DNA of 64,000 nt from an uncultured Muribaculaceae bacterium (GCA_964447275.1 CAYURI010000002.1:17197-81196), one strand, 5' to 3'. Shown: positions 41,573 to 59,744, counted from the stretch's first letter. Numbers and translations: made by a program. Notes: generated by a model not told the origin, from the sequence alone.

Positions 41573-41597
41573 TTTTATAGTAAAGGTTGGTAGTTAT

Positions 41598-45653: not shown

Positions 45654-46109
45654 ATGAAAGAAAGTTTATGGGGTTATTGGTTGATTGTTCTAGGAATATT
45701 TGTTATAATCATCATGATGCTAGTACAAGATTTTACAACCACGAATACTCAAGATTACTATCTTTTAAAAGAAGTAACAGAAGCATCAATGATTGATGCC
45801 GTAGATTATGCTTATTATAGACAACATGGTGAAGTGAAAATTAACAAAGAAAAGTTTGTTGAAAATTTCTTAAGAAGGTTTTCGGAAACAATGAATCTTA
45901 ATAAAACTTATCGAGTTGATTTTTACGGAATATATGAGTCACCACCTAAAGTAAGTGTGAAAATTACGACGACGAGTAATACCTTTACAATAGCTGGAGA
46001 TCAAACATCATTTGATATTGTAAATAAATTAGATGCGATATTAGAACTGAAAATTGGCACATCTAGTTATGAAGATAACTATAATATAAATAGTTATGTA
46101 GGAAGTTAA
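45654..46109 (+). CDS. Small N-terminally anchored membrane protein, possibly a pilin-like or minor subunit
   Basis: WGYWLIVLGIFVIIIMMLV hydrophobic N-terminus followed by a polar domain of about 120 aa. Sits between the giant protein and the CpaB-like gene. Confidence 0.35.
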   Translation: MKESLWGYWLIVLGIFVIIIMMLVQDFTTTNTQDYYLLKEVTEASMIDAVDYAYYRQHGEVKINKEKFVENFLRRFSETMNLNKTYRVDFYGIYESPPKVSVKITTTSNTFTIAGDQTSFDIVNKLDAILELKIGTSSYEDNYNINSYVGS

Positions 46110-46125
46110 AAAGGAGGAATAGAAA

Positions 46126-46989
46126 GTGAAATTAGAAAATATTTTAATGTCTTTTAAGAAGTTCTTTTCGAACAAAAACACTGTAACAATAATAGGAGTA
46201 TTGGTAGGTATATTAATATTATACCTAGGCTATAACTGGCGTGTTAAACAAGCGATAACACCGATCTCAGTACCTTATGCTAAGGTCGAAATATCATCTA
46301 GGACTTTAATTACTAGTGATATGATTGGTTATACGCAAGTACCAAAAAGCATGGCTAATGCTAGTAAGAATTTAGTTACTAATTCAGGACTTGTGGTAGG
46401 TAAATATGTTAGTTATGGATCAACAATTCCAGCTAATAGTTTGTTTTATAGCGAGGCTTTAATGTCTGCTGAAGAACAACCAGATTCAGCATTTGCTGAT
46501 ATACCTGATGGGTATACAATATATTCACTTGGCGTAAACACTCATACTACTTATGGTAATTCTATTTATCCAGGAAATTATATTGATTTATATTTAAAAG
46601 CAATTGATGATACAGGGAAAATTATTTATGCGAAATTAATTGAATCAATTGAAGTATTAGCTGTTAAAGATAGTAATGGTGAACATGTTTTCGAATCAAC
46701 TGTCGAAACACGTAGTCCAGCTGAACTTCTATTCGCGGTTCCTGATGATATGTATTTATTATTAATGAAAGCTGAGTATATAACTACTAATCAAGTAGAA
46801 GTTGTTCCAGTACCTAGAAATGCTGCTTATTCAGCTAATCCTGGTGAAACATTAGTTAAAAGCTCATATTTAAAAGAATTTATTTTAGCGAAAACAACTT
46901 ATGTACCAGAAGATGTTACAACTAATCCAACAACTGAAACTACTGATACAACAAATACACCAACTACGGAGACAACAACCACAAATTAA
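46126..46989 (+). CDS. Flp pilus assembly protein CpaB/RcpC-like (SAF domain)
   Basis: N-terminal TM TVTIIGVLVGILILYLGY. SAF-like VPYAKVEISSRTLITSDMIGYTQVPKSM...LVTNSGLVVGKYVSYGSTIPANSLF. Thr/Glu-rich C-terminal tail. Confidence 0.55.
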   Translation: MKLENILMSFKKFFSNKNTVTIIGVLVGILILYLGYNWRVKQAITPISVPYAKVEISSRTLITSDMIGYTQVPKSMANASKNLVTNSGLVVGKYVSYGSTIPANSLFYSEALMSAEEQPDSAFADIPDGYTIYSLGVNTHTTYGNSIYPGNYIDLYLKAIDDTGKIIYAKLIESIEVLAVKDSNGEHVFESTVETRSPAELLFAVPDDMYLLLMKAEYITTNQVEVVPVPRNAAYSANPGETLVKSSYLKEFILAKTTYVPEDVTTNPTTETTDTTNTPTTETTTTN

Positions 46990-47015
46990 TAAATAAAGAA
47001 TAAAGAGGTGTCAAA

Positions 47016-48134
47016 ATGAATGATGCAATTTTCTCGCAAATTGATTTTGGACCGGTTAAAGAGTTTTTAGATAATGATGATATAACTGATATTAGTTATA
47101 CTAATAATGGTCAAGTATGGTTAAAAACATTATCTAAAGGCGTATATAGTATTGATCGTCCAGAAATTAATAATGCTTTCATCGAAAAACTAGCCTTTCA
47201 ATGTTCTAATGTTATGGGTAAGACCTTTAATATGGCTCATCCAGTCTTAGATGCTGAAAGTGCTGAGCTTCGTATGAATTTCATCCATGAATCAATTTCT
47301 TCTAACGGGATTGCTTGTGTTATTCGTAAAACACCTGCTAAAATTAGATTAAACAAGGAGAAATTACTTGATGAAAAATATATTACTTTAGAATTACATG
47401 ATTTTTTAATTAAATGTGTAGAAGGTCATTGTAATATAATCGTCTCTGGTGAAACAGGTAGTGGTAAAACTGAGTTAGTTAAATACTTAGCTAGTTTTAC
47501 GAAAGAAAATGAAAAAGTTATCACCATTGAAGATACCCTAGAACTTCATTTAGATAGAATATTTCCCCATCGTGATATTGTTGCCATGAAAATTAATAAT
47601 ATTATGTCTTATAGTGATATTTTAGTGGCTTGTATGAGACAAAACCCAAGATGGATACTTTTATCCGAAGTTCGTAGTGCTGAAGCAGTAATGGCCGTAA
47701 GAAACTCTATTTCATCAGGTCATAATATCTTATCAACTATTCACTCTGATAAAGCCGAAAACATTCCAATGAGAATGTATTCTTTACTAGAAACCAACTT
47801 AGACATTGATCAATTCTTAAAGTCTATTCATCGTTATGTTCAACTTGGTGTTCATGTTAGAGGTTATATGAGTAAAGAACTTGGTAGATTTCAAAGAGAA
47901 ATTGTTGAAGTAGTTGAGTTTTATGTTGATGATGATAACAATGCTAAAAGCAATATGATATTTAGAAAGAGTCCTGATGGTAAAGTGGCTATTCAAAATC
48001 CAACTAAATATTTAATTGGCTATATGGAAGCCCAGGGAGTATCAATACCGGAAAACATCTTTTCTTCAGTAACTAAAACTGAAGAAGTAAAACCAAGTTT
48101 TATAATAAATAAAGAAGAAGTCGAAGTTTTATAA
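47016..48134 (+). CDS. Tad/Flp pilus secretion ATPase CpaF/TadA (VirB11/GspE superfamily)
   Basis: Walker A IIVSGETGSGKTELVKYL, Asp box ITIEDTLELHL, Walker B WILLSEVR, His box HNILSTIHS. 372 aa. Confidence 0.75.
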   Translation: MNDAIFSQIDFGPVKEFLDNDDITDISYTNNGQVWLKTLSKGVYSIDRPEINNAFIEKLAFQCSNVMGKTFNMAHPVLDAESAELRMNFIHESISSNGIACVIRKTPAKIRLNKEKLLDEKYITLELHDFLIKCVEGHCNIIVSGETGSGKTELVKYLASFTKENEKVITIEDTLELHLDRIFPHRDIVAMKINNIMSYSDILVACMRQNPRWILLSEVRSAEAVMAVRNSISSGHNILSTIHSDKAENIPMRMYSLLETNLDIDQFLKSIHRYVQLGVHVRGYMSKELGRFQREIVEVVEFYVDDDNNAKSNMIFRKSPDGKVAIQNPTKYLIGYMEAQGVSIPENIFSSVTKTEEVKPSFIINKEEVEVL

Positions 48135-48153
48135 AAAAGAAAGAGGTGCAGCT

Positions 48154-49047
48154 GTGGAACTAATATTATTAATGGTCATCGCGATATTTGTTATGTCTTA
48201 TCGTAAGAATAATGGCGAAAATGTTTACAAGTTTATTGTTAATCAAGTAAATACTGCTTATAACAAATATGCACCATATAGTTTTAAAGAAGTAAGAGAA
48301 AAAGTAAAAGCTTTAGGTCAAGAATACACAACTAAACAATATACGACTCAAGTAATATTATTTGGTGTTGTAGCTGGTGGTATTGCTTACTTATACTTCT
48401 TTAGTTTAATTTGGGCAATTATATATGCTATTATAGCTATTATGTTTATTCCTTATTTAGCTTATTTAAGATGCAAAAGAATCTATAGTGAGTTTATTTT
48501 TGAACAAATTCAAGTATATACAACAAACGTTATTATGGAATTTAATACGACGCAAAGTTTTGTAAAATCCTTAGAAGGTGTTAGAGATTCTGGAATATTA
48601 GAAAACCCAGTCTTAGAAGACTTAAAAATGATGATTGATCTATCTTACCAAAATGGTACAATTGATGAATCAATTGAATATATGAATAATAAATATCCAT
48701 TCTTTATGGTTAAAAATATGCATCAATTATTCTTACAAATTACGAAAGAAGGTTCTAAAGATTCAGGTGAATCTTTAGAAAATATGGCATTAGATATCGA
48801 TATGCTGGTTGAAGGGGTATATCGTGACAGAATGGATCGTCAAACCTTCCATAAAACTTTTGTTACTTATGGACTAGCTTTATATATGTTAGTTATGTTT
48901 ATGCAATTTTTATTAGGTAATGACAATTATTTGGAATTACTAGATTTATGGTATGTCCAAATTCTTCTTCATGCCATTATTATTTTAAATAGCTATTTCT
49001 TAATCGGTGGAGAGAAATACTATAATGAAGATGTGGGGGTAGAATAA
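48154..49047 (+). CDS. TadB-like inner-membrane platform protein (T2SS-F/GspF domain)
   Basis: GTG start after an AGAGGTG RBS. N-terminal TM, paired TMs, a cytoplasmic helical domain and C-terminal TMs. Position is right after the CpaF-like gene. Confidence 0.5.
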   Translation: MELILLMVIAIFVMSYRKNNGENVYKFIVNQVNTAYNKYAPYSFKEVREKVKALGQEYTTKQYTTQVILFGVVAGGIAYLYFFSLIWAIIYAIIAIMFIPYLAYLRCKRIYSEFIFEQIQVYTTNVIMEFNTTQSFVKSLEGVRDSGILENPVLEDLKMMIDLSYQNGTIDESIEYMNNKYPFFMVKNMHQLFLQITKEGSKDSGESLENMALDIDMLVEGVYRDRMDRQTFHKTFVTYGLALYMLVMFMQFLLGNDNYLELLDLWYVQILLHAIIILNSYFLIGGEKYYNEDVGVE

Positions 49048-49048
49048 T

Positions 49049-49837
49049 ATGTACTTTGAAATTTTATTAATTGGTGTCATTATTTATTTCTTACTAGATT
49101 TTAGTGGTCGATTAAGTACTAATCGTTTTATTGAAGATAATGAAACTTATTTTCGTAAATTAAAAGAAAATGATTATGATTTTTATTGCTATGCTAAATA
49201 TGGTAATGGGATTGATGTTGACAAATTGTTTTCAATTCGTTTAAGAAATGGCTTATTATCAATTATTGTTTTATTATTCTTATTCTTAACTAAGTTAAGC
49301 TATGTAAATGTCATATTTTCCCTATTAGTTGGGTTTGGAATCTTTAAATTAGATTATGTAAGCAAGCGTAATTATTATAAAAAGCATTTACATGATATTG
49401 ACCTTTTATTACCATATTATTTAAAAAGCTTAGAAATCTTAATTCAACATTATACTGTGCCAGTTGCGATGGGTAAATCAGTTGAAGATGCCCCAGCGAT
49501 ATTCAAAGATGGTTTAGTAAAGTTGGTTGAAAAGATTGATGCCGGAGATGCTTCGATTGAGCCATATATGGAATTTGCAAGAGAATACCCAGTAAGAGAC
49601 TCAATGCGTATGATGCGACTTTTATATCGTTTAAGCTTAGGTAGACAAGACAGAAAACAAGAACAATTATTAACATTTTCCAAAACAATATCTAACTTAC
49701 AACAAAAATCTCGCGAAACTAAATATAAAGAACGTTTAGAAAAAATGGAAAGCAAAACGATGTATATGTTAGTATCAACTGGAGCTGGCGTTATGTTATT
49801 ATTAGTTTTATCAATATTAATGATGTTTAATATGTAA
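49049..49837 (+). CDS. TadC-like inner-membrane platform protein
   Basis: Same architecture as the preceding gene, with 1-nt spacing. Confidence 0.5.
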   Translation: MYFEILLIGVIIYFLLDFSGRLSTNRFIEDNETYFRKLKENDYDFYCYAKYGNGIDVDKLFSIRLRNGLLSIIVLLFLFLTKLSYVNVIFSLLVGFGIFKLDYVSKRNYYKKHLHDIDLLLPYYLKSLEILIQHYTVPVAMGKSVEDAPAIFKDGLVKLVEKIDAGDASIEPYMEFAREYPVRDSMRMMRLLYRLSLGRQDRKQEQLLTFSKTISNLQQKSRETKYKERLEKMESKTMYMLVSTGAGVMLLLVLSILMMFNM

Positions 49838-49884
49838 AAAAGATGAATTATATATTATAATTATACTAAGGAGGAGTTTTATAA

Positions 49885-50133
49885 ATGAAAGAAGCGACAG
49901 GAGAATTAAACATGACAGTTATAACCGTAATAGCTATAGCTGCAATTGGCGTAATATTTTATACATTGGTATGGCCACTTATTAAGAACAACATTAGTCA
50001 AAGTACAAAGTGTGCTAATGCAATTTGTGATGAATGTGCTAGTGGAGCTAAAACAACTAGTTGTATTTATTATGAATATGATGATGAAGGAACCCAAACT
50101 GGAACAAATCAAATAAGTTGTCCTTGTAAATAA
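49885..50133 (+). CDS. Small pilin-like protein: short charged leader, Gly, long hydrophobic helix, Cys-rich C-terminus
   Basis: MKEATG|ELNMTVITVIAIAAIGVIFYTLVW..., then a C-terminal domain with seven Cys (CANAICDECASGAKTTSCIYYEY...SCPCK). Strong RBS AAGGAGGAG. Confidence 0.45.
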   Translation: MKEATGELNMTVITVIAIAAIGVIFYTLVWPLIKNNISQSTKCANAICDECASGAKTTSCIYYEYDDEGTQTGTNQISCPCK

Positions 50134-50150
50134 GCTGGTAGGTGATTTAA

Positions 50151-50591
50151 ATGAGAGAGGCAATAGGTGGAACATGGCTATTTAATATAGTCGTTCTATT
50201 TGTAATGTTGTTTACTGGCTACCTATGTCTAGCCATTAATTATTCGCGAGCTTATAATGTAAAAAATGAAATAGTTGATATCATTGAAAGAGAAAATGGT
50301 TATAATGATAAAGCAGTCAAAGATATTGCTTCATATTTAACTGAAATAGGCTATCGAACAACTGGTAAATGTGAAGAAGATATGATAGGAAACAACAGCG
50401 ATAAAGACTTTGGTGTTGGTGAAAATATATATTGTTACAAAGCAATAAAAGTTGGTGGCGAAGAAGACTATGCGGAAAGTGTTTATTATCAAGTAGAAGT
50501 TTTCTTTCAAATTGATTTACCAATATTTAGAGATTGGTTTACTTTTTCCATAAAAGGCGATTCTAATCAATTATTTTATAGTGAAAGTTAA
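50151..50591 (+). CDS. TadE-like pseudopilin, paralog 1
   Basis: MREAIGGTWLFNIVVLFVMLFTGYLCLAINYSRAYNVKNEIVDIIERENG follows the TadE N-terminal pattern (hydrophobic helix, then aIeFgRa...l.na.REGaR-like). Confidence 0.5.
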   Translation: MREAIGGTWLFNIVVLFVMLFTGYLCLAINYSRAYNVKNEIVDIIERENGYNDKAVKDIASYLTEIGYRTTGKCEEDMIGNNSDKDFGVGENIYCYKAIKVGGEEDYAESVYYQVEVFFQIDLPIFRDWFTFSIKGDSNQLFYSES

Positions 50592-50611
50592 TAAAAGTAA
50601 GGTGATGTAAA

Positions 50612-51091
50612 ATGCGACAATCAATTGGTAGTACATGGTTATTTTCATTAATGATTATTTTCATCTTACTTTTTACTGCTTATTTAGCAGTAGCTATTAA
50701 TTACTCAAAAGCTTTTAAAGTCAAAAATGAGTTAATTAATATTATTGAAAGAGAAGAGGGCCTTACTAGTAATATAGACGAAGAAGACCCAGGAGCAGTA
50801 GAGCAAATTGATAAATATTTAGAGAGCGTTGGTTATGTGAATCGTGGTAACTGTCCAAGTGGTTATCAAGGTTATAACAAATATAAAGATGGTAATAAAA
50901 CCAAGTATGGTTATTGCGTTAAAAAATATAATAGCTATAATGAAAAAGAACGTCAAAGATCATATTATAGTGTTGTATTGTTTTTTAATATGGATTTACC
51001 AATCTTCGGTGATTTCTTTACTTTCAGAGTAAAAGGAGAAACTACCGAAATAGTATATCCAGCTGATTGTATAACTTGGCTAGAATGTTAG
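50612..51091 (+). CDS. TadE-like pseudopilin, paralog 2
   Basis: MRQSIGSTWLFSLMIIFILLFTAYLAVAINYSKAFKVKNELINIIEREEG. Also shares the C-terminal FFNMDLPIFGDFFTF motif with paralog 1 (FFQIDLPIFRDWFTF). Confidence 0.5.
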   Translation: MRQSIGSTWLFSLMIIFILLFTAYLAVAINYSKAFKVKNELINIIEREEGLTSNIDEEDPGAVEQIDKYLESVGYVNRGNCPSGYQGYNKYKDGNKTKYGYCVKKYNSYNEKERQRSYYSVVLFFNMDLPIFGDFFTFRVKGETTEIVYPADCITWLEC

Positions 51092-51109
51092 AATAAAAGG
51101 GAGATTTTT

Positions 51110-52102
51110 ATGAATGTAATCGTAGCTAATAAGTATCAAGCGATGCTTGCTAATTTAGATATTGATATTATTAAGACCATGTATGGTGAATTTAGCGTTG
51201 ATGAAATAATTGAAACTTTCACTAATTTTTTCTATAATCGCATGATTTTAGATATAACAGCGATTAAAGGCTATAAAGATATTAATAATATTCAAAGGTT
51301 ATCAGCAGGTTTAGATATGAGCAAAATTATCTTAGTTTTAGATGATAGTGAAGAATCATCTAGTGCTAATTACTTATCTAAACTGATATCAATGGGTATA
51401 TATAACTTTAGTAGGAATGTTGATACCATTAAATATTTAATTCAAAATCCCAATAGTTATAAAGATGTAGCTCAAATTCATCAATTAAATGACTTAACAA
51501 CCACGATTGTAGAAAAAGTAGAAGGTGGACTTCCTGATACCAAAATTATTGGTGTTTCTAACATTACTGATCACGCTGGAGCTACTACTTTAATTTATAT
51601 GCTAAAAAAACAATTACAAGCTAATTACAAAGTTATAGGAATTGAAGTTGATCGTAAAGACTTCTCATTATTTAATGATCCTAATTTAGTTAGTACAACA
51701 TCTCAAGACTTTGCCAAAGAATTAATGAAAGCTAAAGATTTTGACATTATTTTAGTTGATTTAAATGGGACTGATAATGAAGATGCTTGCAGTGATATAT
51801 TATACTTAATTGAACCTAGTACCATCAAATTAAATAAAATGATTAGAAGGAATCGCAGCATCTTTGAGAAACTAAAAGGCAAAAAGATTGTTTTAAATAA
51901 AAGCTTATTAGATAGTAAAGATGTTTTAGATTTTGAATATGAAGCCAAAACTCAAGTATATTATAATATCCCACCATTAGATGATAAAAAAGATCGTCAT
52001 AATGTTTTGGATGTCTTCTTAACAAAACTAGGCTTTATTAAACAAAATAGTGAAGAAAACACAGAAAAGAGCAATAAAATATTGGGTTTATTTAAATTTT
52101 AG
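51110..52102 (+). CDS. TadZ/CpaE-like protein (REC-like N-domain plus ParA/MinD-like domain with a degenerate Walker A)
   Basis: KIIGVSNITDHAGATTLIYMLKKQL occupies the position of the CpaE deviant Walker A (xGxKGGVGxTT) but lacks the Lys. Confidence 0.35.
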   Translation: MNVIVANKYQAMLANLDIDIIKTMYGEFSVDEIIETFTNFFYNRMILDITAIKGYKDINNIQRLSAGLDMSKIILVLDDSEESSSANYLSKLISMGIYNFSRNVDTIKYLIQNPNSYKDVAQIHQLNDLTTTIVEKVEGGLPDTKIIGVSNITDHAGATTLIYMLKKQLQANYKVIGIEVDRKDFSLFNDPNLVSTTSQDFAKELMKAKDFDIILVDLNGTDNEDACSDILYLIEPSTIKLNKMIRRNRSIFEKLKGKKIVLNKSLLDSKDVLDFEYEAKTQVYYNIPPLDDKKDRHNVLDVFLTKLGFIKQNSEENTEKSNKILGLFKF

Positions 52103-52112
52103 TTAACTATGG

Positions 52113-52141
52113 TTGACAAAAGTTTTAATAAAGATTAAAAT
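52113..52141 (+). promoter_or_regulatory. Internal sigma-A-like promoter (TTGACA, 17 nt, TAAAAT) between the Tad module and the downstream module
   Basis: TTGACA at 52113-18 and TAAAAT at 52136-41 lie in the 63-nt gap before the 52166 gene. Confidence 0.4.
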
Positions 52142-52165: not shown

Positions 52166-52489
52166 ATGACATTTTGTACAGATGCCGCTTCAATTTTAGG
52201 ATTTATAGGAACAGTATTCTTTGTATTTAAAATTGCTATTCCAGTATTATTAATTGTACTTGGATCAATCGATTTAGGAAAGGCTGTTGTTGCTCAAAGT
52301 GAAGATGAAATTAAGAAGGCAACACAAATATTAGTAAAAAGAGCCGTATTTGGAGTTATCATATTCTTTATACCTACAATAGTTGGTTTAGTATTTGGCT
52401 TAGTAGGATCATTTAAAGCTGAATATCAAGATCAATATAATGTTTGTCGAGAATGCATTGTTCATCCATTTTCTGGAAACTGCGAATAA
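52166..52489 (+). CDS. Small membrane protein: the minimal member of a three-paralog family sharing a helix / charged loop / helix module with a Cys tail
   Basis: ILGFIGTVFFVFKIAIPVLLIVLGSIDLGKAVVAQSEDEIKKATQILVKRAVFGVIIFFIPTIVGLVFGL then CRECIVHPFSGNCE. Confidence 0.5.
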   Translation: MTFCTDAASILGFIGTVFFVFKIAIPVLLIVLGSIDLGKAVVAQSEDEIKKATQILVKRAVFGVIIFFIPTIVGLVFGLVGSFKAEYQDQYNVCRECIVHPFSGNCE

Positions 52490-52567
52490 TAAAAAAAATA
52501 GTCAACATTTTCTTGGTGCTTGACTTTTTTTATGCTATAATTTCCTTAGATAGTGAGTGATTATTTA

Positions 52568-53686
52568 ATGAAAAAGATCATTTTAATAATATTGACAGCT
52601 TTAGTAAGTTTATTTATTTTTAATTATAATGTGGAGGCTTTGAATTCTGATGCTACAGCGACATGCGTGTATAAGATTCCAGGGAGTAATGTTTTTAATT
52701 CTTTTACCTATGAATATGCTAATGTTGACGGTTCTTATAATTGCTCTGTTCCTCCAACTACATCTTCGAATGTATATATATGTGAAGTAGATAGCGGACT
52801 TACAAAAGAAAAGTTTGTTAACAATAAAACTGATGAGCTTCTGTGCCCGATATTATACTATAGCTACGGAATTAAATCGTCTTTAGCTATAGAAGGATCC
52901 CCATCAATAACTACTCATTCATTCGCTATTTCTTTCAAAGATTATAATGAAAATTTGTCATGGTTTCAGAAAATATTTGATGGTAAAACTGTGTATGGAG
53001 CAATGAACTTATCGTTTTCAAGTATCAAACAAGGATCTCAAAAAATAGAAGAAGAAAATGAATCGAAATATCTACAATGTATATGTGGAGACATCTTGCT
53101 AAAGCAAGGATCTTTAACTTTTAACAATCAATACAGCCAATATTCTCAAGAAACTGATTTTACTAGTTTTAATTTAAACAATTTTACAAAATGCCCAGAA
53201 GCGATATATTATAAGTTTAATGATGCGTTTTTATCTGGGAATAGATACATGGATATAAGAGATACTAATTTTGACAAGGCTCAATCAGCGGCCTGTGCAA
53301 CTACTGAAGATGCTGATGCTTGGGATGGGTCATCAGGTAATGATACTGATTATAAACCTCAAGAAGATGTAATAAAATCTTTTTGCGAAGAAACGCACGG
53401 TGTTTGGAAGATGGCTGGCTATTTAATTAATGCCTTAAAAGTAATGATTCCCGTAATTATAATTGTTATGGGGTCAATTGATTTAGGTAAAGCTGTGGTT
53501 GCTAATAGCGAAGATGAAATGAAAAAGGCCACTCAAGTACTAATAAAAAGAGTTATAGCCGGAATAATAATTTTCTTTATCCCAACTATTATGAACTTAA
53601 TATTAAAAATGGCATCTAATTACGTGTCAACAATTAGTAGTAGTTCAAGTTGTGTTGAATGTGTTACAAAGCCTTGGGGATGTTAA
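52568..53686 (+). CDS. Secreted Cys-rich protein carrying the same C-terminal helix-loop-helix membrane module (paralog 2)
   Basis: Signal peptide MKKIILIILTALVSLFIFNYNVEA. Ectodomain of about 270 aa with many Cys. C-terminus MIPVIIIVMGSIDLGKAVVANSEDEMKKATQVLIKRVIAGIIIFFIPTI...CVECVTKPWGC. Confidence 0.5.
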   Translation: MKKIILIILTALVSLFIFNYNVEALNSDATATCVYKIPGSNVFNSFTYEYANVDGSYNCSVPPTTSSNVYICEVDSGLTKEKFVNNKTDELLCPILYYSYGIKSSLAIEGSPSITTHSFAISFKDYNENLSWFQKIFDGKTVYGAMNLSFSSIKQGSQKIEEENESKYLQCICGDILLKQGSLTFNNQYSQYSQETDFTSFNLNNFTKCPEAIYYKFNDAFLSGNRYMDIRDTNFDKAQSAACATTEDADAWDGSSGNDTDYKPQEDVIKSFCEETHGVWKMAGYLINALKVMIPVIIIVMGSIDLGKAVVANSEDEMKKATQVLIKRVIAGIIIFFIPTIMNLILKMASNYVSTISSSSSCVECVTKPWGC

Positions 53687-53746
53687 TAAACTTCTTGGCA
53701 TAAAAATGAATATATGTTAGAATAAAATATGATAGGGAGTGTAAAC

Positions 53747-54460
53747 ATGAAGTGCTTAAAAATTTTATTTATTTTTGCTTTTACTTTATTTACTAGTATT
53801 GTTTTTATAGATAAGGTTAATGCTGCTAGTTCTTGTTATTGCTGTGGAGGAGCTGGCGGTTGTACTTATGTGTGGAAAGAGGCTAGAGATGCTAACGGCA
53901 CAAATTGTGTTAAAGTTTCTAAAAGTAAAACTGCTTGTAATGGGACAAACACTACAAATGGCAGCGGTGCTTGCTGGTATTGTGAAACAGGTTCTACGAG
54001 TGGGTACAGATGGACTTCTGATGGTTCTAAACCAAATGCTAATTGTTATGTGGTAAACGGAAAAACTCAATCAAGTTGTAATGGATCATCAACTGGCGGC
54101 GGTTCGGGCTCAGGATCAACTTCGGATGATGAGACCTACGAAGATTATGAGGATTCTGATGGCCCTGATATTAGTGGTCCATCAACATCATCAGGTTGTT
54201 CAGGAATTATTGGTAATGGCCAATTTCGTATTTATTTAACTGATATTCTTAATGCAATGAGAATAGTTGGCGTTGCAATGGTTATTGTTTTTTCCACAAT
54301 TGATTTTGCACAAGCTTTAATTACTCAAGATAATGATGCAATGAAAAAGGCTTCTGAAAAGTCAATGAAGAGACTAATATTAGCAATGGTTATATTCTTT
54401 ACCCCAATTTTATTAAATATTTTATTATCATTAGTTGGTATAGACGCGAGTTGTATATAA
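53747..54460 (+). CDS. Secreted Cys-rich protein carrying the same C-terminal module (paralog 3)
   Basis: Signal peptide MKCLKILFIFAFTLFTSIVFIDKVNA. SSCYCCGGAGGC...CWYCETG Cys-rich domain, then a Gly/Ser/acidic linker. C-terminus RIVGVAMVIVFSTIDFAQALITQDNDAMKKASEKSMKRLILAMVIFFTPIL...DASCI. Confidence 0.5.
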   Translation: MKCLKILFIFAFTLFTSIVFIDKVNAASSCYCCGGAGGCTYVWKEARDANGTNCVKVSKSKTACNGTNTTNGSGACWYCETGSTSGYRWTSDGSKPNANCYVVNGKTQSSCNGSSTGGGSGSGSTSDDETYEDYEDSDGPDISGPSTSSGCSGIIGNGQFRIYLTDILNAMRIVGVAMVIVFSTIDFAQALITQDNDAMKKASEKSMKRLILAMVIFFTPILLNILLSLVGIDASCI

Positions 54461-54480: not shown

Positions 54481-56385
54481 ATGGCAGATTTACTATTAAC
54501 ATGTGGAACTGGTATGAGGGTGTTTTATTCAATAATGCTCTCGCTAGATTCAGCTATTTATTGGTGTGTAGATGTTGTATATAGCGTTTTTATTGTTATA
54601 TGTAATACACAATTGTTTTCTGCCACCACTTTCGAAGCATTTTCGAGCAGAATCTATGCTATTTTTGGCGTAGTTATGCTATTTATTGTTACGAGCCAGT
54701 TACTTGTTAATATTGCTGACCCTGACAAAGCAGCGTCCGGAGAAGCGAGCACTGCTAAACTTGTTCAAAATATTATAATTGCTTTAATTTCGATAGTTTT
54801 GCTACCGACAGTTTTTAAATATTTATATGTTATCCAAAAGGCTGTTGTTACTGAAAATATTATTGGTAATATAATTGTTGGTGGATATGAGACATCAACG
54901 AGCAAAGATTTTAAAAGCATGGTAAAGCATAGTGGGAAAGATATGGCTTTTAGAACATTTACAGCTTTTATTAATCCTGCTGGGTATGCGGGTAATAATG
55001 ATAAGGGATGCGAAGCAATACCAGGTTTAACTTATTGTCTTATTTACGATAAAATAAATAATTATGGTTCAAGTGATTATGGTAAAGTGTCTTTGTTCGC
55101 TAGCCAAAACCAAGTTACTAATGAAATTTATAAAGGCAAAGTTGAATATCGATGGGGATTTTCTGCTTTGGCAGGTATTTTAGTTACTTATTTTCTATTG
55201 TCATATTCAATAGATATGGGAGTGCGTGTCGCTAAGCTTGCTTACTATCAATTAATTGCTCCTGTTCCTATAGTTTTAAGAATAATTCCTAAGCAACAAT
55301 CAGTGTTTGATAACTGGGTTAAAGGGTTAACAGGCACATATATTGGCGTCTTTATTAGATTAATGATTGTATATTTTTGTATATTTTTAATAAATGTTAT
55401 ACCGGCTGCTTGGGATGGAATAGTAAAAGCTGGTGGTGGCAGTGATAGAACTATTGTTAATGCGATGGTTGTAATATTACTGATTTTTGGTGTATTTATA
55501 TTTATGAAAGAAGCACCAAAATTAATTACACAAATGTTTGGTATCAGCGAAGGTGATATGTCAATGGGTATTGGCAAAAAACTTGCTGGTGCTGCTGTTA
55601 TTGGTGGCGCAGTTGCTGGCGCTCAAAAGCTTGGTAAAAAATATGCTGGTAAAGCATATGGTGGCCTAACTGGAGCTCTTGGTGGCGGTTGGGATTCAAT
55701 GATGAATGGCGAAGGATTTGGCGCCGGATTTAGAGCTGGTGGCCTTGGTGGTTGGGATGCTGGTGGTAGACAATTTGGCAAACAACGTTTAGAATCATAC
55801 AAATCAAGAACTGGAGATTATAAAGGCAAACCTGGTATATTTGGTGATAAATCATGGGGAACAAAATATAGAAATGCAACAGGAGACGCTAGAGATGATG
55901 CTTATAAAGCTGCTTCAACGGCTAGAATACAGGCAGCTCAAATGCTTGCTGGGGCAAGCTATTCAAGATTTGTAAGTGATTTAGAAACTGAAATTCGTTC
56001 TAATCCCGCATTTATGAATAGTATAGCTGGTTATGCTCCAGATGTTCAAGATGCTTATATTAATCGCGAAATATCAAGCAGATCCAATGCGACATTGCAA
56101 AATCTGGTTAGTGGTAATGATGTTGATAGAGCAACGGCTTTATCCTATGTTAGGGATAATCTTGGAATGTCTGCCGCAGATATTAATGCTTTATCGTCAG
56201 TTGGTAAGACAGTTGCTGCTGAAGCCAAACAACAAGCTAAAGTTCAAGAAGAAAAGGATAATAAAAAAGTTGGAAGAATCTTGCAAAATGTTTCTGGTGG
56301 AGGAACTCCTCCTGCTGCACCTCCCGCTGCGCCTCCTGCTGGTGGCGCTGGTGGTGGAGCAGCTGGCGGTGGGGGACATCCATAA
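54481..56385 (+). CDS. Polytopic membrane protein, VirB6/TrbL/TcpH-like, with a Gly/Ala/Pro-rich C-terminal tail
   Basis: At least six hydrophobic helices across 330 aa (for example YQLIAPVPIVLRIIPKQQSVFDNWVKGLTGTYIGVFIRLMIVYFCIFLINVIP). Hydrophilic Gly-rich C-terminal half ending PPAAPPAAPPAGGAGGGAAGGGGHP. Sits immediately upstream of the VirB3/VirB4-like genes. Confidence 0.45.
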   Translation: MADLLLTCGTGMRVFYSIMLSLDSAIYWCVDVVYSVFIVICNTQLFSATTFEAFSSRIYAIFGVVMLFIVTSQLLVNIADPDKAASGEASTAKLVQNIIIALISIVLLPTVFKYLYVIQKAVVTENIIGNIIVGGYETSTSKDFKSMVKHSGKDMAFRTFTAFINPAGYAGNNDKGCEAIPGLTYCLIYDKINNYGSSDYGKVSLFASQNQVTNEIYKGKVEYRWGFSALAGILVTYFLLSYSIDMGVRVAKLAYYQLIAPVPIVLRIIPKQQSVFDNWVKGLTGTYIGVFIRLMIVYFCIFLINVIPAAWDGIVKAGGGSDRTIVNAMVVILLIFGVFIFMKEAPKLITQMFGISEGDMSMGIGKKLAGAAVIGGAVAGAQKLGKKYAGKAYGGLTGALGGGWDSMMNGEGFGAGFRAGGLGGWDAGGRQFGKQRLESYKSRTGDYKGKPGIFGDKSWGTKYRNATGDARDDAYKAASTARIQAAQMLAGASYSRFVSDLETEIRSNPAFMNSIAGYAPDVQDAYINREISSRSNATLQNLVSGNDVDRATALSYVRDNLGMSAADINALSSVGKTVAAEAKQQAKVQEEKDNKKVGRILQNVSGGGTPPAAPPAAPPAGGAGGGAAGGGGHP

Positions 56386-56418: not shown

Positions 56419-56733
56419 GTGTATATAATACCAGCAAACACGAAGAAATCGATGTTGATATTAGGATTTTTTACAGTATTAGACTTGATAATATTTATTA
56501 CTGGTGTTGGGTTAACCTTGATATGCTTAATAGCATTAAAAACATCTGCACTGGGATTCATGATACTAGAGTTAATGCCAGCTTTAATAGCATTATTACT
56601 TGTAACTCCAGTACCTTATTATCATAATATGCTGCAATTGATGCGAAATTTCTTTAATTTCTTTGGTAAGAGAAGAAGATACATATGGAAAGGATGGTGT
56701 TGGCATGACGACGATACAGTCAAACCAATTTAA
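56419..56733 (+). CDS. VirB3/PrgI-like small membrane protein
   Basis: About 100 aa with two hydrophobic helices. GTG start after an AAAGGAGGAAT RBS. Directly precedes the VirB4-like gene. Confidence 0.4.
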   Translation: MYIIPANTKKSMLILGFFTVLDLIIFITGVGLTLICLIALKTSALGFMILELMPALIALLLVTPVPYYHNMLQLMRNFFNFFGKRRRYIWKGWCWHDDDTVKPI

Positions 56734-57316
56734 AGCAGTTCAAAATACAATAACTAATAGTTCTAGTTCAAATACTCAATCAAAGTATTCAGAAGACTGG
56801 GTGCCAGTTAAAAATATTTTGAATGGCATGATTCATTTAGAAAATGGCGAATTTGTAACGGGTGTAAAAGTAACGCCTAAGAATATATTCATTCTTGATC
56901 AAGATAGTCAGAATAACATTATCTTTAATCTAAGAACATTTTATAATGTTATTGATTATGAGTTTTGGCTTATTATAGCGGACAGACCAGTTGATATAAA
57001 TATTTTCTTATCACAGTTACAAGTTTTATATAACGATACACCAAATCCATTAGTAAGAAAATTAATTATGCAGGATATTAATAAAGCTAATTCATTTATG
57101 AGTACGCAATTAAATGTTGTTGATACTGAGTATTTCATTTTGTTTAAAGAAAAGAAAATGGAACTTATTCAAAAACGTATTCATAGTTTAATAAGCGGAC
57201 TAGCTAATTGTCAAATGAATTCAACTCAAGTAACAAATGAGGATTTAAGGATGCTAATTGATAACTTCTTTAATGGTGGTTTAAGAACCGAGTTTAGGAC
57301 GGTGACGACAGAATGA
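56705..57316 (+). CDS. VirB4/TraE-family N-terminal domain, encoded as a separate ORF (start uncertain)
   Basis: DWVPVKNILNGMIHLENGEFVTGVKVTPKNIFILDQDSQNNIIFNLRTFYNVIDYEFWLIIADRPVDINIFL matches the N-terminal domain pattern of Gram-positive VirB4 homologues (Tn916 Orf16/TcpF-type). Its stop overlaps the next ATG (ATGA). Confidence 0.5.
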   Translation: MTTIQSNQFKAVQNTITNSSSSNTQSKYSEDWVPVKNILNGMIHLENGEFVTGVKVTPKNIFILDQDSQNNIIFNLRTFYNVIDYEFWLIIADRPVDINIFLSQLQVLYNDTPNPLVRKLIMQDINKANSFMSTQLNVVDTEYFILFKEKKMELIQKRIHSLISGLANCQMNSTQVTNEDLRMLIDNFFNGGLRTEFRTVTTE

Positions 57317-59097
57317 ATTTAAAATCAGAATTAGCCCCAAAGGGGATTGAATTTAGAAGTCAAGAATTCACGATTAGTGGTAAATATGCTGTAATTCTTA
57401 CAGTAGTAGGCTTTCCTAAATCTATTTATCCAGGTTATTTGGCAGAAGTATCTAATTTATCGGGTGTTAAAATAGTAATTAAACATATTCCTATTGAATT
57501 TTCGACATTGTCAAAAATGTTAAATAAAGAGATAGCAGATTTAAAAGTTAGATATCAAAATGAAAATGATAAAACTATTCAAGAAAGAATTAGGCAAGAT
57601 TATGAATCATTAGAAGAATTTATTCAAATGCTTGCTGCTACTCAATCAAGAATATATGACTTCCAAATGCATATTATGATTACTTCTGATACAAAAGAAG
57701 AATTAGAAGTTAAGAAGATGCAATTACGTAACTACTTAGATGCTATGGGTATGAGAGCTATACCATTAATGTTTGAACAAGAAAAAGTACTTAAATCAAT
57801 GGTACCAATATTCCCTAAACAGGATATTGAAAACAGAGTGGGAACACCAATTCCTTCTGTTACAGTAGCAGCAATGTATCCATTTGTCTTTGATAGTATT
57901 AAAGATCCAGGATTGTCTACTTTATTAGGGTTTGACTTCTCTGGTGGTGTAATATTATTTAATCAATTCTTATATCAAATTAAAAAAGAATATAACCGTA
58001 ATAATGCTAATATGATTATTCTTGGTACTAGTGGTAGTGGTAAATCTACAGCTGCTAAATTACTTTTAAGGAACCATATTAGAAATGGTTATCAAATAGT
58101 TGTAATTGACCCTGAAGGCGAATTACAAGAAATGACTAAAACGATGGGTGGTAACTTTATTGATCTAGGTAAGGGTGGAGAATTTGGGATGGTAAACCCT
58201 CTAGAAGTAATAGTTGACGCTGATGAAGAAGAACTAGAACAAGGATTAGGTTACACTATCTTAACAAGGACTTTACAAAGCTTAAAAGCTTTTATGAAAT
58301 ATTACACTCCTTCAATTGAAGAAGATGTTTTAACAATGTTTAGTGAAGTAGTTCAAGATACTTATAAACGTTATAAAATTGATTTTGATACGAACTTCTC
58401 TAAATTTAAACCGGAAGATTTCCCAACATTCAGTGATGTTTATGCAACAATTAAAGGAAGACTTCTAAGTATGCCTGAACATAGTCATGAAAAAGATGTT
58501 ATGGAACGCTTAGAATTAAAGATTAGACCACTTGTTAAAGAATTAAAATATTACTTTGATGGTCATACAACAATTGAAAGTAATACTGAGTTTATCGTAT
58601 TTAATATTAAAGAGTTAATGAACTCTGATGAAAATATTCGTAACGCTTTATTCTTTAATATATTAAAATATGCTTGGGGTTTATGTTTAGATAAATCAAT
58701 TAATACTATTATGATGGTCGATGAAGCGCATGTCTTACTTTCTAGTCGTAATGAACTTGGTGCTGAATTCTTAGCCCAAATTCAAAGACGTAGTCGTAAA
58801 TATAATACGGGGACAATTATGATTACTCAACAACCAACTGATTTCGCAGCACCTAATATTATTGTTCATGGTAAAGCCATCTTTGATAACGCAGCTTATT
58901 ATCTAGTAATGGGACTAAAGAAACAAGCAGTTGAAGATTTATCAAAATTAATTGACTTAAACGACAACGAAAGAGAAAGCATTAAATATTACAGTCAAGG
59001 TCAAGCATTATTTGTTTGTGGTAGTAGAAGAATGAGAATAAATGTCGTATTAACTCAAGAAGAATTAGATTCATTTGGTACAGGTGGCGGATTATAA
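57313..59097 (+). CDS. VirB4/TraE/TcpF-family conjugation-type ATPase (middle and ATPase domains)
   Basis: LAPKGIEFRSQEFTISGKYAVILTVVGFPKSIYPGYL, Walker A NANMIILGTSGSGKSTAAKLL, VIDPEGE, Walker B MMVDEAHVLL, IMITQQPTDF. Confidence 0.8.
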   Translation: MNLKSELAPKGIEFRSQEFTISGKYAVILTVVGFPKSIYPGYLAEVSNLSGVKIVIKHIPIEFSTLSKMLNKEIADLKVRYQNENDKTIQERIRQDYESLEEFIQMLAATQSRIYDFQMHIMITSDTKEELEVKKMQLRNYLDAMGMRAIPLMFEQEKVLKSMVPIFPKQDIENRVGTPIPSVTVAAMYPFVFDSIKDPGLSTLLGFDFSGGVILFNQFLYQIKKEYNRNNANMIILGTSGSGKSTAAKLLLRNHIRNGYQIVVIDPEGELQEMTKTMGGNFIDLGKGGEFGMVNPLEVIVDADEEELEQGLGYTILTRTLQSLKAFMKYYTPSIEEDVLTMFSEVVQDTYKRYKIDFDTNFSKFKPEDFPTFSDVYATIKGRLLSMPEHSHEKDVMERLELKIRPLVKELKYYFDGHTTIESNTEFIVFNIKELMNSDENIRNALFFNILKYAWGLCLDKSINTIMMVDEAHVLLSSRNELGAEFLAQIQRRSRKYNTGTIMITQQPTDFAAPNIIVHGKAIFDNAAYYLVMGLKKQAVEDLSKLIDLNDNERESIKYYSQGQALFVCGSRRMRINVVLTQEELDSFGTGGGL

Positions 59098-59105: not shown

Positions 59106-59744
59106 GTGGTGATAGTTTTGGCAGAAACAAATGCAAATAATTTAAATAACGAATCCTTCGATCAAAGTTATGGTCGAAGGGTTTTGCGTGGTGGCAAACA
59201 ATCACAGATAGTTAAATTACCAGGAGCAACAACCGGTAACAGGTTTAATTATTCTAATGCTTTAAGAAGTAATGAAAAAAGAAAAGAAAGCGAAGAATTA
59301 ACAAAAGGAAGCCAAGAGCAAGAGGATGATGGTGAAGGGAATAAGTCTAATTTAGGCTCAAAAGCTCAAGAAGCAGCAGTTGGTATTGCAGCAAAAACTT
59401 TTTTACCACCTGGATTACAAGGAATAGGTAAATCTATTGCTAATAATGTATTAAATAGTAGTGGTGGTGTATCTGAAGCTGCAGAAAAGCTTTTAAAAGC
59501 TAAAAAAATGAAAATCTACTTATATGCTGGAATTGCTTTCTTTTCTTTTATTTTAATAATAGCAATAATATTTGCAGTCTCTTCAACTGGTGGCACTGAA
59601 TCATCTGGAGCTGGATTTAATGAAGTCTCAGAATATGAATTGAACGAGAATTATGATGAGATGCCGGAAGAAGATAATGCAGAAGACTCTAATGTTGAAG
59701 TTGTAGAAAACAGTGAGGTAAATAATAATGAAACAGCACAGTAA
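59106..59744 (+). CDS. Bitopic membrane protein with a polar/acidic C-terminus; possible VirB8-position scaffold (tentative)
   Basis: ORF with GTG/TTG start choices. One TM helix (IYLYAGIAFFSFILIIAIIFAV) near the C-terminal third and an acidic tail. Confidence 0.35.
   Translation: MVIVLAETNANNLNNESFDQSYGRRVLRGGKQSQIVKLPGATTGNRFNYSNALRSNEKRKESEELTKGSQEQEDDGEGNKSNLGSKAQEAAVGIAAKTFLPPGLQGIGKSIANNVLNSSGGVSEAAEKLLKAKKMKIYLYAGIAFFSFILIIAIIFAVSSTGGTESSGAGFNEVSEYELNENYDEMPEEDNAEDSNVEVVENSEVNNNETAQ

Follow-up and report, generated by a model that had tools for sequence, protein, structure and literature searches.

A tandem array of paralogous PF18895-type hairpin proteins, candidate VirB2-like pilins with variable ectodomains, in a T4SS gene cluster of uncultured gut Bacilli

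Gram-positive T4SS are described in the literature as pilus-less, and a 2025 review names the Patescibacteria as the single exception to the absence of VirB2-type pilins from systems of the Gram-positive type. Patescibacteria such as Ca. Southlakia epibionticum and TM7x carry 2–11 divergent VirB2-like pilin genes, with a mean identity of 25%, and the Pfam family PF18895 serves as a VirB2-like pilin profile in that work (PMC12102498); elsewhere in the T4SS literature, a pilus made of PF18895 proteins is treated only as a possibility, and the origin of the Patescibacterial pilins has been left open. Multiplication of pilin genes is also known from the Trw T4SS of Bartonella, where tandem variable copies of trwL (VirB2) and trwJ (VirB5) have been proposed to produce variable surface structures and to confer host-specific adhesion. 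In mycoplasma ICE, a hairpin protein (Mbov_0395) is followed by a polytopic VirB6-like protein (Mbov_0396) and VirB4 (Mbov_0397). Here, we analyse a 64,000-nucleotide stretch of DNA (hereafter, the window) which shares features with each of these systems, and which contains what we regard, with confidence a little above even, as a tandem array of paralogous PF18895-type, VirB2-like pilins comprising a conserved major subunit and variable minor subunits endowed with ectodomains.

The array consists of three genes on the plus strand, encoding a short form of 107 aa (52166..52489), long form A of 372 aa (52568..53686, with an alternative GTG start at 52553) and long form B of 237 aa (53747..54460, with an alternative ATG start at 53729). 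The short form amounts to the bare module, without a signal peptide, and is the candidate major subunit, whereas in the long forms the module is located at the C-terminus. In all three, the module is composed of a helix, a charged loop, a second helix and a Cys-containing tail. The genes are paralogues: in BLASTP comparisons, the 107-aa protein is 45.5% identical to the 372-aa protein over 101 aa (E 3.7e-30) and 29% identical to the 237-aa protein over 69 aa (E 5e-13), and the two long forms are 33% identical over 63 aa (E 6e-14). Accordingly, the claim of an earlier note on this DNA, that three adjacent paralogues share a C-terminal module, is borne out, with pairwise E values of 4e-30 to 5e-13. 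Its description of the modules as near-identical applies loosely to the 107- and 372-aa proteins, which share 64% identity in the core (residues 22–82), but not to the 237-aa protein, which is 33% and 31% identical to the other two and carries QDNDAM in place of the supposedly common motif xxEDE[IM]. The tails quoted in the note (CRECIVHPFSGNCE, CVECVTKPWGC and DASCI), as well as the stretch SSCYCCGGAGGC...CWYCETG and the G/S/D/E linker, are all found in the translations. Sixteen columns are invariant in the alignment of the three window modules, and C4, D36, K39, A40, R59 and F67-F68-x-P70 (numbering of the 107-aa protein) persist across 38 diverse relatives, four of these residues (C4, D36, R59 and F67) being invariant in all 38. 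The BLASTP E values, together with the conservation of polar and special residues in these relatives, demonstrate a likeness beyond generic hydrophobicity. Within the 64-kb window, an HMM of the module matches only these three ORFs, and an HMM of homologues scores the three proteins at 2e-51, 3e-35 and 4e-14.

The AF2 model of the short form (pLDDT 79.5) contains helices at residues 2–43, 46–82 and 85–99, the first two of which form a long helical hairpin that recurs in the model of the 372-aa protein (helices 268–309 and 315–350); AF2 helices and hydropathy segments concur in the two-helix membrane hairpin expected of PF18895 proteins. The loop between the helices contains five K/R residues, as opposed to 1 and 1 in the flanks of the 372-aa module and 1 and 0 in those of the 237-aa module, and the cysteines of the window proteins, even in number, are confined to the parts predicted to be outside. 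From these sequence rules and the AF2 model, we infer that both termini face outward and that the charged loop is cytoplasmic. The predicted topology, supported by the K/R counts and the placement of cysteines, agrees with the proposal that two helices around a charged loop represent an arrangement of the VirB2 kind: as in VirB2/TrbC/TraA proteins (for instance, A. tumefaciens VirB2 and F TraA), two hydrophobic helices would flank a positively charged cytoplasmic loop, with extracytoplasmic termini. The outer ends of VirB2/TrbC proteins are joined by cyclisation, whereas those of the proteins described here are probably joined by disulfide bonds between a Cys preceding helix 1 and a Cys of the tail; cysteines are present within 21 aa before helix 1 in 237 of 244 module ORFs and in the tail in 243 of 244. 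As is the case for canonical VirB2, the genes lie in a T4SS operon near virB3 and virB4. By contrast, the loop spans ~24 aa instead of a few residues, a third helix and a Cys tail are added, a leader peptide is missing from the short form, ectodomains of ~125–245 aa are present in the long ones, and the envelope is of the monoderm type.

The length of the loop speaks against the pilin interpretation, and is in keeping with an alternative one, close to the wording of the earlier note, whereby the hairpin anchors the proteins in the membrane without polymerising, and these are accessory subunits of the monoderm T4SS situated beside a VirB6/VirB4 channel, with their adhesin- or enzyme-like ectodomains at the surface and no pilus, in a role comparable to that of essential small membrane proteins such as TcpD/TcpE or mycoplasma ICE CDS13/CDS15. 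This alternative, which we consider unlikely, also gains from the lack of similarity to canonical VirB2: PF04956 was matched by none of the window proteins and none of 166 relatives, and hhalign comparison of the family alignment with eight annotated VirB2/TrbC proteins yielded a probability of 1.5% (E 0.035), that is, no similarity. Furthermore, reviews portray Gram-positive T4SS as devoid of pili and reliant on surface adhesins, the equivalent small proteins CDS13/CDS15 of mycoplasma ICE have been read as VirB3-like by some authors, and the esterase or lipase ectodomains found in rare relatives would suit display at the cell surface. The pilin interpretation, for its part, has the support of a family profile that Pfam itself names a pilin.

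Membership of the window proteins in that family, PF18895 (T4SS_pilin), is indirect, by transitivity, because their homologues match the profile and the HMM of these homologues, in turn, matches the window proteins; by direct score, they are outliers. At E<=0.01, PF18895 is matched by 37 of 41 close short-form homologues (50–85% identity) and by 44 of 125 long-form relatives, with a best E value among relatives overall of 4.8e-8, and precomputed PF18895 annotation is attached to about a quarter of the homologues among the matches listed. Of the window proteins themselves, the 372-aa protein reaches 16.4 bits (E 0.01, residues 286–345; gathering score 26.6), and the 107- and 237-aa proteins yielded no PF18895 match in the Pfam search. 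The earlier note, which did not recognise the module as a described family, is not borne out on this point: close homologues fall in PF18895, tandemly arrayed PF18895 pilin genes adjoining VirB4 have been published for Patescibacteria (PMC12102498), and an NCBI family of ‘pilin-like conjugal transfer proteins’ occupies the equivalent position in mycoplasma ICE. The latter family (NF045849, Mbov_0395) was not matched by the three window proteins, and was matched weakly (E<=0.01) by 2 of the 41 and 6 of the 125 relatives, with a best E value of 2.3e-4 and all scores far below the curated cut-offs. Another profile, NF046011 (MAG4940 family membrane protein of Mycoplasma agalactiae, a family without an assigned function), was matched at E<=0.01 by 14 of the 41 short homologues; the module aligns with its C-terminal part (positions 219–281 of 286; 17 bits versus a cut-off of 35), the N-terminal region remaining unmatched, which suggests that NF046011 proteins are built alike, with a hairpin at the C-terminus after an N-terminal region. 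In metagenomes, the family profile gathers 10,437 clusters at 50% identity.

What sets the three proteins apart is the region preceding the module. The short form has virtually none, with Cys4 before helix 1 and Cys94, Cys97 and Cys106 in the tail. In the 372-aa protein, a signal peptide (aa 1–24) is followed by a β-rich ectodomain with eight Cys (~aa 25–265) and the module (aa 268–372), with Cys273 before helix 1 and Cys362, Cys365 and Cys372 in the tail. In the 237-aa protein, a signal peptide (aa 1–26) precedes two tandem Cys-rich repeats of ~45 aa each (~aa 27–120; 30% identical over 46 aa, E 2e-8), a G/S/D/E linker extending to ~aa 150 and a divergent module (aa 151–237), with Cys151 before helix 1 and Cys236 in the tail. 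The signal peptides of both long forms were assigned by inspection, from N-terminal hydrophobic segments followed by VEA/L and VNA/A motifs. The claim of the earlier note that variable, unrelated Cys-rich ectodomains precede the module is upheld. Foldseek comparison of the 372-aa model, itself of low confidence (pLDDT 62.6), with the PDB returned nothing below E 0.1, and the search of PDB sequences with the family profile recovered only spurious GPCR segments. Prepilins of the Flp/Tad and type IV kinds possess a class III signal peptide and only one hydrophobic helix, at the N-terminus; an identity of this kind does not fit the module, which is a C-terminal two-helix hairpin, preceded in the long forms by Sec-type signal peptides.

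Immediately downstream of the array, on the same strand, lies a set of T4SS genes. The first encodes a VirB6-like polytopic membrane protein of 634 aa (54481..56385), which matches the NCBIfam Mbov_0396 family ICE transmembrane protein (E 3.5e-8) and the pLS20_p028 family (E 5e-4). It is followed, just upstream of VirB4, by a small two-TM protein of 104 aa in the position of VirB3 (56419..56733). Because no Pfam or NCBIfam family matches this protein, the VirB3-like label derives from its position, which is conserved in related loci, and its topology. The VirB4 ATPase (56663..59097) is split into an N-terminal ORF (56663–57316) and a C-terminal ORF (57313–59097), as it is in related loci too; the two parts match the NCBIfam Mbov_0397 family (E 5.7e-13 and 4.5e-105, respectively) as well as Pfam AAA_10/P-loop_TraG. 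Next come a 212-aa membrane protein and a 1187-aa SpoIID-domain protein (59106..63291, plus strand), the latter a candidate cell-wall remodelling component of the T4SS, and, just past the window end and after two more genes, a VirD4-type coupling protein (PF02534, E 6e-47; L087:5320-6699). The location of the array in a T4SS cluster is thereby confirmed. No VirB5 homologue was recognised, and no relaxase was found in the window and ~3 kb beyond its end. VirB3 forms a hairpin with cytoplasmic termini. A VirB3 or TcpE-type identity of the module was rejected, given that its termini are predicted outside and that a separate 104-aa gene directly precedes VirB4; the same two points weigh against the anchor interpretation.

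The neighbourhood parallels those of the known systems. As in Patescibacteria, tandem divergent paralogues of a small two-helix hairpin adjoin VirB4, VirB6 and VirB3 of a monoderm-type T4SS, but the hosts are uncultured gut Bacilli, a Tad-like gene set accompanies the arrays, and many members carry large N-terminal ectodomains and conserved putative Cys staples, neither of which we found in the passages of PMC12102498 that were searched. The order of hairpin protein, VirB6-like protein and VirB4 is that of mycoplasma ICE, and the best NCBIfam matches of the window VirB6-like and VirB4 proteins are the mycoplasma ICE families Mbov_0396 and Mbov_0397; unlike in the ICE, the hairpin gene has been multiplied and fused to ectodomains. 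Multiple sequence-variable pilin genes within one T4SS locus are likewise a feature of Bartonella Trw, where, however, variation affects whole small pilins and separate VirB5 adhesins, whereas here it falls mainly on the ectodomains, to which a conserved hairpin is fused.

At least 376 loci show this arrangement of genes, and every one of them comes from MAGs of uncultured gut Bacilli. A typical array, with one to seven paralogues, begins with a conserved short form (first member short in 50 of 56 arrays) and continues with signal-peptide forms bearing ectodomains of up to ~500 aa, the longest members totalling 616 aa. It directly precedes a VirB6-like gene in 43 related loci, and such a gene follows every long-form array that can be judged, as the earlier note would lead one to expect. 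The window and these loci thus show the gene placement expected of the PF18895 family, next to VirB4/VirB6 and often in arrays. The expectation that relatives always neighbour VirB4/VirB6 failed for short forms: 17 loci contain one or two short forms only, with no VirB6-like gene in the 3 kb downstream, and Tad-like genes adjoin 16 of the 17. The short form is 85–93% identical to its orthologues in two related loci (L003 and L007). Between the window and L007, identity is 92.5% for the short form and 95% for VirB4, but 41.6% and 47.7% for the long forms. Within the proteins, the ectodomains evolve much faster than the module: 12 orthologues of the 372-aa protein share 37% identity in the ectodomain, as opposed to 75% in the module, and in the 237-aa orthologue family the linker is 34% identical and the module 73%. 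A tblastn search of 72,556 plasmids with the short form gave no match, and a literature search for RF39 and type IV secretion returned nothing relevant.

Candidate expression signals surround the short gene. Immediately 3' of its stop codon is a terminator-like hairpin with a run of seven U (52489..52533, plus strand; dG -10.6 kcal/mol, z -2.6), equalled in folding by 3 of 200 shuffles. A hairpin and U-run, with differing stem sequences, occupy the same place in six related loci, and are enriched after first-position short genes (34 of 74, versus 55 of 477 controls). An extended -10 promoter-like motif, TGcTATAAT, read directly from the sequence, then precedes the 372-aa gene (52533..52541, plus strand); TGnTATAAT also follows the U-run in L003, L006, L007, L024 and L057, and TGnTAnAAT occurs within 130 nt after 36 of 74 first short genes, compared to 64 of 477 controls. 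Together, the hairpin and extended -10 may represent expression signals of the kind suited to a major subunit. Upstream of the short gene, the promoter-like site TTGACA-17-TAAAAT (11/12 matches; 52113..52141, plus strand) is only a weak candidate, because the sigma-70 promoter scan of the region found no excess of sites over shuffles (15 versus 16.4), and a site preceding the 237-aa gene (53695..53723, plus strand), TTGGCA-17-TAGAAT with an upstream TG, is similarly weak evidence. A TTGACT/TATAAT pair was rejected as a promoter on account of its spacer of only 10 nt. Ribosome-binding sites are provided by GAGGA before the ATG of the short gene and AGGGAG before the ATG at 53747. High conservation and a terminator of its own are the grounds on which the short form is proposed as the major subunit; that the member showing the greatest conservation and constancy is a bare hairpin, with its own terminator, would be hard to explain if the hairpin served merely as an anchor.

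Upstream of the array lies a Tad-like gene set (45654..52102, plus strand), in which family matches are limited to DUF5411, RcpC/CpaB and a T2SSE ATPase; the other labels derive from position and sequence reading, namely two polytopic proteins located where TadB/TadC would be, a Cys-rich, tentatively Flp-like protein of 82 aa (49885-50133, plus strand), two tentative TadE-like proteins and a 330-aa tentative TadZ-like protein. In 27 related loci, this set and the array are found in synteny. The hairpin proteins could, therefore, serve this machine, or a single hybrid Tad/T4SS apparatus, with the short form as a subunit or platform component. We judge this improbable, although several observations point in its direction. 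The 16 loci in which one or two short forms stand beside Tad-like genes without a VirB6-like gene within 3 kb downstream imply that the hairpin is not strictly tied to a T4SS; in about a dozen loci with this Tad-only order, the short form comes immediately after the two polytopic genes, and beyond it the longer loci show AddAB-type large genes, as read from the sequence. In addition, the terminator separates the short gene transcriptionally from the T4SS genes downstream, and the best NCBIfam match of the T2SSE ATPase is VirB11, followed by the TadA-family conjugal-transfer-associated ATPase, so that the Tad-like and T4SS sets may constitute one system. Weighing on the other side are 16 loci in which an array and VirB6 occur with no Tad-like gene detected upstream (10 with at least 4 kb of upstream sequence and 6 with too little for a judgement), the restriction of long forms to arrays demonstrably preceding VirB6, and the nature of the proteins, which are two-helix hairpins and not Flp-type prepilins, the Flp-like candidate being a separate gene; genomes with Tad-only loci may, moreover, have a T4SS elsewhere. 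In one of the loci (L010), a putative tRNA remnant, read from ORF translations, was observed after the short form.

The constancy of this neighbourhood also bears on the notion that an unrelated small membrane protein, such as a holin or pore former, has come to lie in the cluster by chance. Two hydrophobic helices around a charged loop would fit a holin, and weak sub-threshold matches to DUF4064, DUF2619 and GPCR-type profiles indicate that composition-driven matches do occur. Nevertheless, no PHROGs family, holins included, was matched (E<=0.01), and the idea was dropped on that account; signal peptides and large ectodomains would be out of keeping with it, the neighbours are T4SS and Tad-like genes, with no phage genes nearby, and dozens of species keep the module genes between the Tad-like genes and VirB6. 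We regard it as highly improbable.

Under the favoured interpretation, that of a VirB2-like pilin array, all three proteins would be inserted in the membrane with both ends outside, and their common hairpin, its outer ends stapled by disulfide bonds, would be handled by the VirB6-like/VirB3-like/VirB4 machine encoded immediately downstream. In the long forms, the hairpin would be supplemented at the N-terminus by a Sec signal peptide and by an ectodomain rich in disulfides, which changes several times faster than the hairpin. The ectodomains would be displayed either at the surface of the cell or along a pilus-like polymer built from the short form; there they would make contact with target cells, their variability setting or diversifying specificity. 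Polymerisation into a pilus and a role in adhesion are what the analogy with known pilins suggests, those of the canonical VirB2/TrbC kind being assembled with phospholipid into an extracellular pilus. A bolder version, which we consider doubtful, is that a lineage of uncultured gut Bacilli has a hybrid apparatus, Tad/VirB11-like in part and T4SS in part, which assembles a pilus of the VirB2 type on Gram-positive cells, with the conserved short hairpin as the polymer and hypervariable ectodomain pilins, some of them enzymes.

The presence of PF18895 arrays in hundreds of Bacilli genomes contrasts with reviews limiting such pilins to the Patescibacteria. Even if the hairpin is an anchor, the proteins represent a large T4SS-linked surface-protein family, unreported in the T4SS literature examined, and the fusion architecture offers a natural display scaffold. 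Should the hybrid-apparatus pilus prove real, it would be the first such case outside the Patescibacteria and a plausible evolutionary source of their arrays, and the fusion of pilin and ectodomain would constitute a novel class of adhesin or effector displayed on a pilus. Finally, if the proteins described here are functional pilins, the division into ‘pilus in Gram-negatives, adhesins in Gram-positives’ would need revising, the Bacilli would become candidates for the lineage that donated the Patescibacterial arrays, and the conserved hairpin with its fast-evolving ectodomains would probably determine the specificity for partner cells in gut bacteria that are abundant and uncultured.

The array comprises three tandem ORFs on the + strand, as the earlier note had described: a short form of 107 aa (52166-52489, +) and two long forms of 372 aa (52568-53686, +) and 237 aa (53747-54460, +). 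Alignment of their C-terminal parts contains 16 invariant columns, and pairwise BLASTP connects the short form with the 372-aa protein (45.5% identity over 101 aa, E = 3.7e-30) and the 237-aa protein (29% over 69 aa, E = 5e-13), as well as the two long forms with each other (33% over 63 aa, E = 6e-14). Homology is clear for all three C-terminal modules, but the description of these as near-identical does not extend to the 237-aa protein, which is too diverged: identity over the module core is 64% between the 107- and 372-aa proteins and only 33% and 31% in the two pairs involving the 237-aa protein. The likeness exceeds generic hydrophobicity, because polar and special residues are retained when 38 diverse relatives are aligned, with C4, D36, R59 and F67 invariant and I30, K39, A40, F68 and P70 almost so. 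A module HMM search found no fourth copy within the 64-kb window.

Hydropathy indicates two hydrophobic helices per module and, in the two long proteins only, a signal-like segment at the N-terminus. The AF2 model of the short protein, built from a 41-sequence alignment (pLDDT 79.5), consists of a long helical hairpin (helices 2-43 and 46-82) and a short third helix (85-99), so that the charged loop of the module is, in this model, the tip of one continuous hairpin. The model of the 372-aa protein (pLDDT 62.6) combines a beta-rich ectodomain (residues ~30-245), a disordered linker and the hairpin (268-309 and 315-350). The loop holds five Lys/Arg residues, and the flanks one and one in the 372-aa protein and one and zero in the 237-aa protein. 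All cysteines of the three proteins fall in regions predicted to be outside; each mature protein has an even number of them (4, 12 and 12). Among 244 module ORFs from 81 non-redundant loci, a Cys lies at most 21 residues ahead of helix 1 in 237 and a tail Cys is found in 243; the claimed C-terminal position of the module holds for nearly all of them (median tail 27 aa, three tails longer than 60 aa). We infer that both ends are outside and the loop is cytoplasmic, and that a disulfide probably staples the two outer ends of the module together. The ectodomain of the 237-aa protein is built from a Cys-rich unit of ~45 aa present in two tandem copies (30% identity, E = 2e-8), and a further copy appears to be present in two relatives.

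Directly 3' of the array are genes for a VirB6-like protein (Mbov_0396 and pLS20_p028 families), a 104-aa protein with two TM segments in the VirB3 position, and VirB4 (Mbov_0397 family; C-terminal part, 4.5e-105), divided into an N-terminal TraC-like part of 217 aa (56663-57316, +) and an ATPase part of 594 aa (57313-59097, +). The two VirB4 ORFs overlap by 4 nt and are also separate in the related loci examined. Past VirB4 follow a 212-aa membrane protein and a 1187-aa protein with a SpoIID domain. Contig L087, which carries the same SpoIID gene as the window, encodes a VirD4-type coupling protein (L087:5320-6699; PF02534, E = 6e-47) ~0.8 kb past the window's 3' end, and the T4SS therefore has a T4CP; two unknown genes (251 and 233 aa) lie between it and the SpoIID-domain gene. 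Neither the window nor the ~3 kb past its end showed a relaxase. A VirB3-like reading, proposed for CDS13/CDS15 of mycoplasma ICE, is contradicted for the module on two counts: its predicted topology, and the distinct gene that occupies the VirB3 position.

A direct match to PF18895 (T4SS_pilin) was obtained for the 372-aa protein only and fell short of the threshold (16.4 bits, E = 0.01). Databases contain 643 homologues of the short protein, many of which, at 50-60% identity, carry PF18895; at E<=0.01 the domain is found in 37 of 41 aligned short-form homologues (best 4.8e-8) and 44 of 125 long-form relatives. The proposal that the family is undescribed is thus not upheld: its homologues fall in PF18895, and arrays of such pilins are already known. 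Weak NCBIfam matches to the MAG4940 family (C-terminal part), the Mbov_0395 'pilin-like conjugal transfer protein', MMCAP2_0566 and Mbov_0396 are nevertheless telling; the 'pilin-like' naming of the mycoplasma ICE protein shows that NCBI curators had already seen part of it. Comparison of the family alignment with eight annotated VirB2/TrbC genes from plasmids (hhalign) gave no canonical likeness (probability 1.5%), PDB sequence and fold searches returned nothing informative, and PHROGs contained no match for the module. Since the VirB2 comparison was negative, the label 'pilin' is founded on PF18895, topology and genomic context rather than on demonstrable VirB2 homology. The main rival explanation sees the hairpin as a static anchor within the T4SS membrane complex; polymerisation of the module proteins is only inferred.

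Scanning one genome per species revealed at least 376 module loci, and the family profile matched 10,437 clusters at E<=1e-3 among 1.84 billion representatives, the best 150 of which are mostly long forms of 250-560 aa. The 80 listed loci derive from uncultured gut MAGs labelled mostly as Bacilli, with some Tenericutes, Erysipelotrichaceae, Mycoplasma and Firmicutes; named carriers among them are Ca. Ventrenecus, Ca. Coprovivens and Firmicutes CAG:460, which we take to belong to the RF39 lineage. About ten are labelled 'uncultured Muribaculaceae bacterium' (L007, L009, L011, L039, L045, L047, L052, L069, L075 and L086), which looks like a labelling error because the locus content is of the Bacilli type. 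The very locus of the window is present in the gut-sample runs SRR8925775 and SRR8925805. Arrays contain one to seven module genes, the first being short in 50 of 56; by length, 118 module ORFs do not exceed 160 aa, another 50 fall between 161 and 300 aa and the remaining 76 are above 300 aa (maximum 616 aa). One 418-aa ORF (L011:7971-9227) contains two modules (residues ~11-100 and 295-398) and is either a fusion of the short and the next gene or the product of a lost stop codon or mis-assembly. Ectodomains of the long-form relatives almost never match Pfam, the single cases being a GDSL lipase and an alpha/beta-hydrolase esterase or PHA-depolymerase-like domain.

The array is followed directly by VirB6 in 43 loci. 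The suspected constant proximity of the module to VirB4/VirB6 is borne out for all judgeable arrays with long forms, which directly precede VirB6, but not for 17 loci with one or two short forms (<=143 aa), where a VirB6-like gene is absent within 3 kb downstream. Tad-like genes adjoin 16 of these 17, and roughly a dozen loci have the short gene directly after the two polytopic genes; a second rival explanation is that the short form belongs with the Tad-like machine. The Tad-like set upstream of the window array encodes DUF5411, an RcpC/CpaB-like protein, a T2SSE ATPase, two polytopic proteins and, labelled from position and sequence reading without family matches, an 82-aa Cys-rich, tentatively Flp-like protein, two TadE-like proteins and one TadZ-like protein. 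The ATPase (47016-48134, +) best matches the NCBIfam models of VirB11 (1.6e-33), then of the TadA-family conjugal-transfer-associated ATPase and TrbB, all under the cut-offs, and its function could lie with the T4SS rather than with a separate Tad pilus.

Cys is unusually abundant in the extracellular proteins throughout the cluster. In the 82-aa protein (49885-50133), a hydrophobic segment lies at the N-terminus and six Cys in the C-terminal half, and the usual Flp G/xxxxEY motif is missing. Two secreted Cys-rich proteins without family match start the conserved cluster (41526-45637), one of 251 aa with a C-terminal TM anchor and one of 1118 aa, whose homologues precede DUF5411 in many related loci. 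Farther upstream are the housekeeping genes BipA, Tex and KsgA, making the setting chromosomal; a Zeta-toxin-type P-loop (PF06414, E = 4e-8) is encoded by an ORF of 271 aa (7624-8439) that has housekeeping genes as neighbours and is distant from the cluster. In L010, a related locus, the short gene (L010:7983-8336) stands right after DUF5411, CpaB-like, ATPase and two polytopic genes, without Flp-like, TadE-like or T4SS genes, an order repeated in L014, L015, L017, L027, L028, L041, L061, L070, L077 and L083. Beyond it, ORF translations suggest a putative tRNA remnant in L010 only, and the large genes past the short gene in farther-reaching loci of this type read as AddAB-type. Eight other loci (L033, L035, L045, L052, L075, L078, L079 and L081) have other ORFs in place of the CpaB/ATPase genes and an extra module gene (133-254 aa; ~5300-6070 in each locus) upstream of the Flp-like gene, with TadE-like and 330-aa genes between it and the main array.

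Relative to L007, the closest other species, VirB4 is 95%, the Tad-like ATPase 91% and the short form 92.5% identical, and the 372- and 237-type proteins 41.6% and 47.7%, respectively. Mean identity within the 372-type orthologue family is 37% for the ectodomain and 75% for the module; the 237-type family shows 54% in the Cys-rich part, 34% in the linker and 73% in the module. Directly 3' of the short gene is a hairpin with U7 (dG -10.6, z -2.6) and, downstream of it, TGcTATAAT. At the equivalent place in six related loci there is likewise a hairpin with a U-run, its stem differing in sequence, and five of the six also show TGnTATAAT. A terminator-like signal follows 34 of 74 first short genes compared with 55 of 477 control ORFs, and the extended -10 motif 36 of 74 compared with 64 of 477. 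These signals explain how the short gene can remain with the upstream unit, and they fit the short form being the major subunit, separately and probably strongly expressed.

The best-supported interpretation is a VirB2-like (PF18895-type) pilin array of one conserved bare hairpin and variable ectodomain-bearing members. Patescibacteria likewise carry arrays of 2-11 divergent PF18895 pilins (PMC12102498), and the variable trwL copies of Bartonella are another published parallel; according to PMC12102498 and a recent T4SS review, VirB2 homologues are absent from Gram-positive classes, Patescibacteria excepted. Relative to the T4SS literature examined, the occurrence of such pilin arrays in Bacilli appears to be new, as do the systematic fusion of the hairpin to large, hypervariable, disulfide-rich ectodomains and its linkage to a Tad-like set. 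All members would enter the VirB6/VirB4 assembly pathway through the common hairpin, and their ectodomains would then be exposed on the cell surface or on a pilus.
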